Shown piece after piece: positions 28,528-55,999 of a stretch of DNA of 64,000 bases (its first letter is position 1; each line of letters begins with the position of its first letter). This DNA comes from Candidatus Thorarchaeota archaeon (lineage in GTDB: Archaea > Asgardarchaeota > Thorarchaeia > Thorarchaeales > Thorarchaeaceae). The stretch spans positions 160,001 through 224,000 of the forward strand of contig CAVSBO010000016.1 in the NCBI GenBank assembly GCA_963726195.1, given 5' to 3'. The notes under the pieces were generated by a model, which made no database searches, was not told where the DNA came from, and worked only from the letters and a program-made list of their open reading frames with translations. Both the position numbers and the translations under genes were made by a program.

Positions 28528-28635
28528 GGGTCGGTGGTCTAGCTTGGCTATGATTCTTGGTTCGGGACTCAAGAACTGATATCCAGATCTTGCCCGAGCA
28601 AGAGGTCGCCGGTTCAAATCCGGCCCGGCCCACCA
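28528..28635 (+). tRNA. tRNA-Pro(CGG) with 30-nt intron (28569-28598) at position 39/40
   Basis: Acceptor GGGTCGG/CCGGCCC+ACCA; T-arm GCCGG-TTCAAAT-CCGGC; removing the BHB-bounded intron restores CTTGG-TTCGGGA-CCAAG. Confidence 0.9.
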
Positions 28636-41350: not shown

Positions 41351-41663
41351 GTGCAGCGGGTAGGGCGACTCGTTTGCCGCGAGCGAGACCACATGGCAAT
41401 AGTGGCGTCAGTAACCCGGCAGAGTGTGAAACCCAACCCCCTCAGTATTCGTCGAAGGACTATGACGAGTAGTCTCTGAAGTCTATCACGGCCACAGCAA
41501 CAATCGTAGGATTGTTGTGAGTGGATTAGATTGTCGAACCGGGTCAGGCCCTGGCGGGAACAGCCCTAAGGCTAGGTGATGGAGCCTCAGAGGAAACTGC
41601 TCCGAGGAGAGCGACGAGAGACTGCCTGGGAAGGGACAGACGAAACCTAAGGAGCCGCTGCAC
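41351..41663 (+). ncRNA. ffs: Archaeal SRP (7S) RNA
   Basis: Terminal helix GTGCAGCGG/CCGCTGCAC; helix 6 with GTAG loop; helix 8 GGGT-CAGG-CCC-loop-GGG-AACA-GCCC; helix 5 GTAGTCTCT/AGAGACTGC; ~313 nt; TATA-like TTTTTA upstream and T-run downstream. Confidence 0.85.
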
Positions 41664-41688
41664 CTCCTACTGTTCTTTTTCCACCATT

Positions 41689-42160
41689 CGACAGGAATAG
41701 GCAAGTGGGCTAGCGCCGCAACCGCGACGCACACAGTCGAAAGCCCGAGGGAGAAAATCCTCTCAAGGGATATCCTTACTCCCCAAGAAGAATGCAGTAT
41801 TACATTCCCGGGAGTCTGCGGTGGTTCACGCCGCTCAAACGAGCCTTCCCGATTTCAGCGATGAAATTGGGATGAGTGATCATGACCCCACCGTGGTAAG
41901 AACTGTGGAAGGCCTCTCTGCCGTCGGGCACGATACACCGACATCACGACAGGAGAAAAAGGCCAGGTCTGTAGGAGGGATTCCATCTCAGTGATTACAG
42001 ACGAAGCCTCTGCTAACCCCGCGCCATCAGCAGTCGGGGGGCGGCGACGCCAGACAGAGGAAGGGCAGAACACAGAAGTTTCTTGCAGTTGAGCTTCACT
42101 CACATCAGAGAAACAGCGTCAGAGCAGGCTGGCTCCTTGCGCGCCGGCCTGTTTCCTTCG
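41689..42160 (+). ncRNA. Unidentified ~470-nt multi-stem structured RNA
   Basis: Long end-to-end closing stem, about 10 hairpins, two GCGA tetraloops, G-U pairs favouring + strand, no credible ORF. Confidence 0.75.
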
Positions 42161-42206
42161 CAATGTTTATGAGAACACCTGTACGCTCTTGTTTCTCGCT
42201 AGAACA

Positions 42207-42381
42207 GCCGGGGTTTCCTAGACCGGTCGGGGCGCCTTTTTTGACGCCACGGGGCGCTATGGAGCCAGCCTGCTAACATTTGAGCATTATGTGTGCTTGC
42301 AGATAGTTGGTGTCGAAAGACTCGAGGGTTCAAAGGGTCTCACGGTTTTCGTGAGGCCGGAAAGTCCCTCCCCCGGCGCCA
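42207..42381 (+). tRNA. tRNA-Ser(GCT) with three introns (D-loop 42227-42257, 37/38 42276-42304, 59/60 42335-42364)
   Basis: GCCGGGG/CCCCGGC+G+CCA; CCAGC/GTTGG anticodon stem; variable arm GTC-GAAA-GAC; GAGGG/CCCTC T-stem; BHB-like motifs at each insertion. Confidence 0.88.
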
Positions 42382-42445
42382 CTTCTTTTCCATTACGCGA
42401 GCAAGCGACTAACACTGAAGCCTGTAGTCATAATCCTAGGCTAAT

Positions 42446-55893: not shown

Positions 55894-55999
55894 TGGCGGG
55901 CTAGGCGGGATTTTCAAGCGCCACGGAATGTCTGCGCCGTTCGAACCCGCGAGCTTCAGGTTAAAAGCCTGCCGCGCTACCTGGCTGCGCTACTAGCCC
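55894..55999 (-). tRNA. tRNA-Lys(TTT) with 29-nt intron (55911-55939) at 59/60
   Basis: GGGCTAG/CTAGCCC+GCCA; GCGC D-stem; CT-TTT-AA loop; BHB TTCG|AAC|GGCGC...GCGCT|TGAA|AAT. Confidence 0.92.

Follow-up and report, generated by a model that had tools for sequence, protein, structure and literature searches.

The window analysed here, a stretch of 64,000 nt from the genome of a Candidatus Thorarchaeota archaeon, raises the question of whether 175 nt of its plus strand (42207–42381), in which tRNA finders see no tRNA when the DNA is read straight through, could be a working tRNA gene once the right pieces are taken out. Non-canonical and multiple bulge-helix-bulge (BHB) introns are textbook features of the Thermoproteales, and an earlier note on this DNA, made from the letters alone, had read the locus as a tRNA-Ser gene with three such introns. 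Our analysis shows that it is very probably a tRNA-Ser(GCU) gene of four exons and three short BHB introns, and the sole detectable Ser-GCU gene of this Thorarchaeota genome.

The locus ends in complementary 7-nt acceptor halves, with a G and CCA after the 3′ half, and its parts are listed in Table 1 together with the other RNA genes mentioned below. Left unspliced, the locus gave no tRNA with ARAGORN run on the window, with ARAGORN in intron mode on the locus, or with Rfam at the gathering threshold or at E ≤ 10, just as the earlier note had predicted for standard finders. Once the three introns are removed in silico, with each cut placed after the second base of the bulge, ARAGORN calls an 85-nt tRNA-Ser(gct), and the proposed Ser-GCU anticodon and type II architecture are thereby recovered. 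Specifically, the spliced product has; 1) a 7-bp acceptor stem, a D-stem of 3 bp plus a U.U pair, an anticodon stem of 5–6 bp and a 5-bp T-stem; 2) the residues U8, A14, G15, G18G19 and A21; 3) a long variable arm; 4) a TTCAAAT T-loop; and, 5) G73 and an encoded CCA. In the ARAGORN fold it thus combines the anticodon GCU, the long variable arm and the discriminator G73 of a class II tRNA-Ser. The long variable arm and G73 are identity elements for archaeal SerRS. A different T-loop cut, at 42332/42363, lies one register off the BHB rule and was rejected, as it yields a TTCAAGT loop where the cut at 42334/42365 gives the consensus TTCAAAT. Oligo-T runs terminate transcription in archaea, and it is on this basis that the TTTT downstream of the gene is read as a likely stop.

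Table 1. Parts of the tRNA-Ser(GCU) locus and other RNA genes discussed in the text (window positions unless a contig is given).
Feature	Position	Strand	Description
Promoter-like box AATGTTTATGAG	42162–42173	+	TATA-like core TTTATG starting 41 nt upstream of the gene
Exon 1, 20 nt	42207–42226	+	Acceptor 5′ strand, U8, U9, D-stem 5′ strand, D-loop to G18 G19
Intron 1, 31 nt	42227–42257	+	D-loop, between G19 and U20; relaxed motif (HBh′-like)
Exon 2, 18 nt	42258–42275	+	D-loop end, D-stem 3′ strand, position 26, anticodon stem 5′ strand, anticodon loop to A37; anticodon GCT
Intron 2, 29 nt	42276–42304	+	Canonical 37/38 position; relaxed motif (hBH / bulge-helix-loop type)
Exon 3, 30 nt	42305–42334	+	A38, anticodon stem 3′ strand, long variable arm, T-stem 5′ strand, T-loop nucleotides 54–59
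Intron 3, 30 nt	42335–42364	+	T-loop 59/60; canonical hBHBh′ motif
Exon 4, 17 nt	42365–42381	+	U60, T-stem 3′ strand, acceptor 3′ strand, discriminator G73, genome-encoded CCA
TTTT run	42386–42389	+	5 nt past CCA; likely transcription stop
Inverted Ser-GCU gene fragment	42114–42147	−	69 nt upstream of the real gene
Archaeal SRP RNA	41353–41661	+	Full-length Rfam model match, 66.6 bits, E 1.7e-14; gathering score 96.5
tRNA-Pro(CGG)	28528–28632	+	One intron; Rfam 40.9 bits; ARAGORN intron mode Pro(cgg)
tRNA-Lys(UUU)	55894–55999	−	29-nt intron 55911–55939, T-loop 59/60, canonical motif, central helix TTCG/TGAA
tRNA-Arg(CCU)	G000:C16:242037–242147	+	18 kb beyond the window; D-arm insertion of ~35 nt

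The kind of interruption can be narrowed down from this anatomy. Split and permuted tRNA genes have their pieces apart or out of order, and here the four exons follow one another in order on the same strand, in a span of 175 nt. Group I and group II introns have a ribozyme core and run to hundreds of nucleotides; those found here are 29–31 nt long and matched no Rfam intron family at E ≤ 10.

The position of the exon boundaries was determined by a spliced alignment that is blind to the splicing motif, with the intron-free orthologue of a related genome (G022) as the reference. It places insertions of 31, 29 and 30 nt after reference positions 20, 38 and 69, and the introns obtained in this way are exactly 42227–42257, 42276–42304 and 42335–42364, identical to those given by the rule of cutting after the second bulge base; the lengths and sites in the earlier note (D-loop, 37/38 and T-loop 59/60) therefore agree with an alignment that knows nothing of the motif. 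The D-loop cut can slide by one T, which leaves the product unchanged. Compared with the G022 gene, the spliced product is identical at 76 of 85 positions, the differences being two D-loop positions, position 22 and the variable arm. When the locus was used as a query against 40 related genomes, it returned exon-sized matches whose spacing varied from genome to genome, with the G022 gene uninterrupted, and the intron-free orthologues share the exon junctions. The D-loop junction had been held to be less certain than the other two. That caution is justified for the structure of the site, where the motif is relaxed and the outer helix displaced, but not for the junction itself, since it is set by homology.

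The three introns approach the canonical BHB motif to different degrees, as judged by checking, by reasoning, the register of each motif against the canonical 37/38 geometry. The T-loop intron is canonical, with a central helix TTCA/GGAA (3 of 4 pairs, one A.G), bulges AAG and AGT, an inner helix of 9–10 bp and the 5-bp T-stem as its outer helix. The 37/38 intron is of the hBH or bulge-helix-loop type; its central helix CTGC/GCAG is fully paired (4/4), its outer helix has 6 bp and its 3′ bulge is ATA, and the 5′ cut falls inside an 8-nt loop followed by a displaced hairpin of 5–6 bp, so that the inner helix is not adjacent and the motif is relaxed. The D-loop intron is HBh′-like, with a central helix GACC/GGGC (3 of 4 pairs, one A.G), bulges GGT and GCT, an inner helix of 7 positions with one G.A, and an outer helix, the D-stem, that is set off by 2 unpaired positions; folded without constraints, the D-loop region has a minimum-free-energy structure that is not BHB-like. 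Two structural details of the earlier note are thus reproduced, namely the A.G mismatch in the central helix of both non-canonical introns and the relaxed inner side of the CTGC/GCAG helix.

The motifs were also scored in the orthologous genes. Among the T-loop introns 12 of 15 have the canonical motif, against 141 of 3000 trials with shuffled T-site introns, and 13 of the 15 genes have the intron at 59/60, the other two at 58/59 and 55/56, with the junctions of six T-loop introns set by requiring a valid T-arm in the product. Of 18 anticodon-loop introns, 16 have the canonical motif (122 of 3600 when shuffled); the window's is the one relaxed case, and that of a metagenome contig (L145) the one with no motif. 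All 5 D-loop introns are relaxed only (shuffled sequences gave the canonical motif in 8 of 1000 trials), and 3 of these 5 were retrieved with a pattern that requires the GGGC element; in the four genes other than the window's, the site shows a 3-nt 5′ bulge and a central helix of 3–4 bp. For the T-loop motif, the one for which covariation was computed, an alignment of the T-arm and intron of 13 orthologues has 86.3% of its cells paired, as compared with 71.8 ± 2.0 in shuffled alignments, and none of 500 shuffles reaches the observed value. In these orthologues all 9 pairs of the inner helix, and 11 of the 18 pairs of the motif in total, vary in both partners. Covariation scores 0.444, as opposed to 0.200 for shuffled alignments, again with none of 500 shuffles reaching it, and every slid control is lower. 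The T-loop motif is thus conserved by compensatory change.

The occurrence of the introns across the family was followed with a 15-mer from exon 2, which at up to one mismatch matched in 36 of 86 family genomes, some of them by chance, and led to 29 genomes with a resolvable gene. Fifteen matches that scored below 40 in the spliced alignment were discarded; 14 were chance one-mismatch hits, and one (L116, in G054) was exact but ended by a contig edge. Among the 29 resolved genomes, 6 have no intron, 3 have the T-loop intron only, 10 the anticodon-loop intron only, 8 the anticodon and T introns, one (G016) the D and T introns, and one, that of the window, all three. These represent six of the eight possible combinations at the three sites, and a seventh, D plus anticodon, occurs in metagenome contigs. 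The latter come from a scan with a D-loop-intron-specific pattern, a biased sample, which yielded three contigs; L145 has all three introns, and the other two have D and anticodon introns. Counting these, the D-loop intron is present in G016 and three metagenome contigs as well as in the window. Once insertions are removed, 28 of 28 distinct orthologous genes are called Ser(gct), and the exons are common to 31 distinct orthologous genes. In this family sample the three-intron form is the first for Ser-GCU, and it is seen in one of the 29 genomes, in one metagenome contig and in one related strain, described below. Three genomes of the same genus (G001–G003) gave no Ser-GCU gene when searched with the window DNA, the exon-2 15-mer, an exon-1 pattern and an exon-4 pattern; the candidate loci in them proved to be other Ser/Leu-type tRNAs and were rejected. 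Synteny, followed through a neighbouring small protein, is broken in G001, and the protein is absent from G002 and G003. Outside the family but within the order, we also observed in one genome (G025; L007 = G025:C13, ~1480–1650) a Ser-GCU gene with an 84-nt intron at 59/60, the 12-bp inner helix of which is formed by two near-identical AT-rich arms.

The earlier note had raised the matter of whether Ser-GCU is otherwise missing. In the assembly (2.92 Mb, 88.9% complete) no other Ser-GCU gene was found; 27 tRNAs pass the Rfam cut-off and ARAGORN makes 44 calls, some of them dubious, none of which is Ser-GCU. BLAST searches of the assembly with 5 intron-free orthologues and with the spliced product found the four exons in order at this locus only. 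A look-alike of the anticodon arm, one base off, at G000:C16:242098–242115 belongs to tRNA-Arg(CCU) and was rejected as a second Ser-GCU gene. The neighbouring aIF5B and EF-1α genes contain 7 AGC/AGT codons each.

Upstream of the gene, 22 of 28 distinct orthologues have a TTTA[AT][AG] box in the context AATGTTTA(A/T)GAG with its start at −50 to −30 (at −41 in the window's gene), and in five more of the 28 it lies further upstream, at −58 to −67. It is a putative archaeal TATA box. Moreover, two peat-metagenome DNA runs from one study hold contigs of a strain ~93% identical, which are colinear with the window from 42119, one reaching 42374 and the other 42334, and which have all three introns and no joints. 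Among the differences listed against the window, this strain has 6 substitutions and one deletion in 88 upstream positions, 1 change in ~78 exon positions (at position 9, which is variable among orthologues too) and 4 changes in 90 intron positions, of which 2 are in a hairpin loop, 1 is in the enlarged bulge and 1 turns a C-G pair into U.G. The three-intron form therefore persists in a second strain. A separate short contig has G>A at 42375; at this acceptor position the genes of other genera differ too, and there the pairing partner has changed to match. Of 18 candidate runs, one recorded as RNA and one presumed to be RNA, four (X1, X2, X3 and X15) were compared with the stretch. Metatranscriptome run X15, the one RNA run compared, and run X3 contained nothing of the stretch 42207–42381, the runs that hold it all being DNA metagenomes; that the precursor is spliced is what the arrangement of exons and motifs leads us to expect.

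The host appears to be equipped for such splicing. Its genome encodes two PF01974 (EndA) proteins and an RtcB that scores 594 bits, and so has, at the gene level, a candidate endonuclease for non-canonical sites as well as a ligase. The endonuclease of broad specificity that the earlier note held to be needed for multi-intron tRNAs thus has a counterpart here in two paralogues, of which the alpha carries the broad-specificity loop. When compared with A. pernix EndA 3p1z_B (E 2.6e-45), this EndA alpha (188 aa, encoded on G000:C11) shows no gap across the Crenarchaea-specific (L1) loop; Lys stands where the A. pernix enzyme (APE) has K44 and R46, and the catalytic His of GPGIDHAPF, which is Ala in the mutant structure 3ajv_B, is retained. 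According to the published work on the Aeropyrum enzyme, K44 is an RNA-recognition residue needed for cutting at D-loop and bulge-helix-loop sites, and an EndA with this loop (CSL) cleaves a BHB intron of the D-loop in vitro (PMC3241643). The best 80 relatives of the alpha protein are all from Thorarchaeota or other Asgard MAGs, and the closest, 89% identical, is from an isolate labelled Candidatus Thorarchaeota OWC5. Both EndA Pfam domains are also found in the second paralogue (210 aa), but alignment to the M. jannaschii and M. kandleri enzymes shows Thr at the position of the catalytic His, with the Tyr and Lys kept, which fits a structural beta subunit. The gene for this His-less paralogue lies outside the window (L002:1174–1806, on G000:C16), and its acidic, Glu/Asp-rich N-terminal segment of ~35 residues is uncovered by its PDB relatives.

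We propose that transcription would start from the conserved TATA-like box ~41 nt upstream and produce a precursor of ~175 nt plus a leader. This precursor would fold into an extended cloverleaf in which each intron hairpin presents two bulges with a 4-bp helix between them. An endonuclease made of the catalytic alpha with its Crenarchaea-specific (L1) loop and the His-less beta, presumably as (alpha-beta)2, would then cut after the second nucleotide of each bulge, and RtcB would ligate the four exons into an 85-nt class II tRNA that may read both AGC and AGU. For transcription, for the cleavage sites used in vivo, for the order of intron removal and for the oligomeric state of EndA, this scheme is what we infer from the genes and their folds.

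Three other explanations of the locus were considered. One possibility is that only two of the insertions are introns and that the 31-nt D-loop hairpin either stays in the tRNA as an enlarged D-loop or leaves at other nucleotides. The relaxed motif of this site and a minimum-free-energy fold that is not BHB-like would be consistent with this, as would a report that some Asgard D-arm insertions are possibly not introns (bioRxiv 10.64898/2026.10.13.758758, main text). However, once exactly these 31 nt are taken out, the D-loop has the length and the A14, G18G19, A21 pattern found in the 24 genes, among 28 distinct orthologues, that lack the insert; the insert follows immediately on G19, at the elbow of the tRNA, a site at which 4 other genes have an insert as well, and the cutting of a D-loop BHB intron by a CSL-bearing EndA, cited above from PMC3241643, provides a precedent; we consider this explanation improbable.

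A decaying pseudogene that has collected insertions, with the working Ser-GCU gene in the unassembled 11% of the genome, is less probable still. An assembly that is 88.9% complete leaves room for it, and the inverted piece of a Ser-GCU gene just upstream testifies to a past rearrangement at the locus. Yet decay is hard to reconcile with a spliced product that is a flawless cloverleaf, with a conserved promoter box and no other copy of the gene found, and with a related strain in which 7 of 88 upstream positions are listed as changed against 1 of ~78 in the exons and 4 of 90 in the introns, where structure is kept. As to chance, any unrelated sequence might give a tRNA if three deletions could be chosen freely. 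That general risk is the one argument for a mere resemblance, and it does not apply here, because the alignment to an intron-free orthologue fixes the deletions and leaves no free choice, and 31 distinct orthologous genes share the exons; its probability is close to negligible. We therefore retain the reading of the locus as a tRNA-Ser(GCU) gene with three BHB introns.

How does this gene compare with known systems? The earlier note had placed multi-intron tRNAs mainly in the Thermoproteales, and this has to be widened, as the host here is an Asgard archaeon and multi-intron genes are now published for Asgard archaea. In three complete Asgard genomes, introns are reported in 92–95% of tRNA genes, with more than half of the genes having several (Valentin-Alvarado et al., 2024, PMC11291895), and up to five introns per tRNA gene are described in Asgard archaea (Goswami et al., 2026, bioRxiv 10.64898/2026.10.13.758758). 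As presented in these two studies, those systems are like the present one in belonging to the same phylum, in having several BHB-type introns per gene, many of them non-canonical, and in having a two-paralogue EndA; their introns were found, as here, by comparison with compact relatives. They centre, however, on Atabeyarchaeia, Freyrarchaeaceae and Jordiarchaeaceae, whereas the present lineage is Thorarchaeota, in which Ser-GCU usually has 0–2 introns. The string 'Thor' is absent from the main text of the Goswami et al. preprint, and a full-text literature search found no paper devoted to Thorarchaeota tRNA introns.

In the Thermoproteales, tRNA-Pro(UGG) of Pyrobaculum islandicum has introns at 25/26, 37/38 and 56/57 (Sugahara, 2007, as cited in the review PMC4090602), and the non-canonical sites listed in that review include 20/21 and 59/60. 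Such multi-intron genes resemble ours in having three introns, one canonical and two non-canonical in position, in being colinear and in using BHB or relaxed hBH/HBh′ motifs (PMC4090602). They differ in phylum and in that intron paralogy, indicative of transposition, is reported there, whereas the present genome has no second copies of the three introns but only chance matches of 12–16 nt. In Aeropyrum pernix an (alpha-beta)2 EndA cuts D-loop and bulge-helix-loop introns (PMC3241643); the alpha protein here is ungapped in the loop and is accompanied by a His-less paralogue, the likeness being at the level of the genes. An (alpha-beta)2 EndA with the L1 loop has been described throughout Asgard, one Thorarchaeota genome included, and the L1 loop throughout TACK too; the same study remarks that incomplete Asgard tRNA sets point to unidentified disrupted genes (Kaneta et al., 2018, PMC5829648). 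As heavily interrupted tRNA genes are thus already published for Asgard archaea, and for Thermoproteales, the phenomenon is not new, and the present gene is one more example of it.

The main value of the gene lies in annotation and as a test substrate, with the inverted upstream fragment as a thread of wider interest. Across a family, introns are present or absent at three fixed sites of one essential gene, and this pattern makes a compact test set for asking which substrates Asgard EndA accepts and how fast introns come and go.

The inverted fragment (Table 1) has 16 of 16 bases in common with exon 2 of a G022-type allele, with an alignment score of 32 against a maximum of 26 in 500 shuffles. 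It also matches the window's own gene at 22 of 25 positions, including the last 8 nt of the D-loop intron, and the L145 gene at 28 of 35, including the first bases of its anticodon-loop intron. The same bases double as the left arm of a hairpin of ~11 bp. Upstream of 42119 the contigs of the peat strain diverge completely from the window. The fragment lies at the edge of a strain-specific stretch of ~460 nt, and a search of this genome for a second copy of the upstream stretch 41600–42206 found none.

A speculative idea, which we think unlikely but worth stating, is that Ser-GCU in Thorarchaeota forms a natural series of intron gain and loss, and that this locus keeps a trace, at the DNA level, of the movement of intron alleles. 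The inverted fragment, in which exon 2 seems to be flanked by the last part of a D-loop intron and the first part of an anticodon-loop intron, both from another lineage, would be that trace, and it lies at the edge of a stretch that may be an orphan TnpB guide RNA with a guide matching this tRNA. If this were true, mobile-element traffic at tRNA genes might carry intron alleles between strains, or introns might shorten the target of the element to 14 contiguous bases, and either would bear on the question of how Asgard tRNA introns arrive.

For annotation, the consequence is that both ARAGORN and the Rfam tRNA model overlook the only tRNA detected in this genome that could read AGC and AGU. 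Because the finders miss interrupted genes, tRNA counts used as a measure of MAG quality understate Thorarchaeota genomes. Several sub-threshold Rfam tRNA matches in this genome are likewise interrupted genes. One of them is tRNA-Lys(UUU), which ARAGORN leaves blank when unspliced and calls as a 77-nt Lys(ttt) when spliced, with an Rfam score of 24.8 bits, below the cut-off. The tRNA-Pro(CGG) gene of the window also has an intron (Table 1). The tRNA-Arg(CCU) beyond the window is misread by ARAGORN as Thr(cgt) with a 29-nt intron. Upstream of the Ser-GCU gene, the archaeal SRP RNA is missed at the default threshold since its score falls below the gathering cut-off (Table 1), even with a match to the full length of the model.
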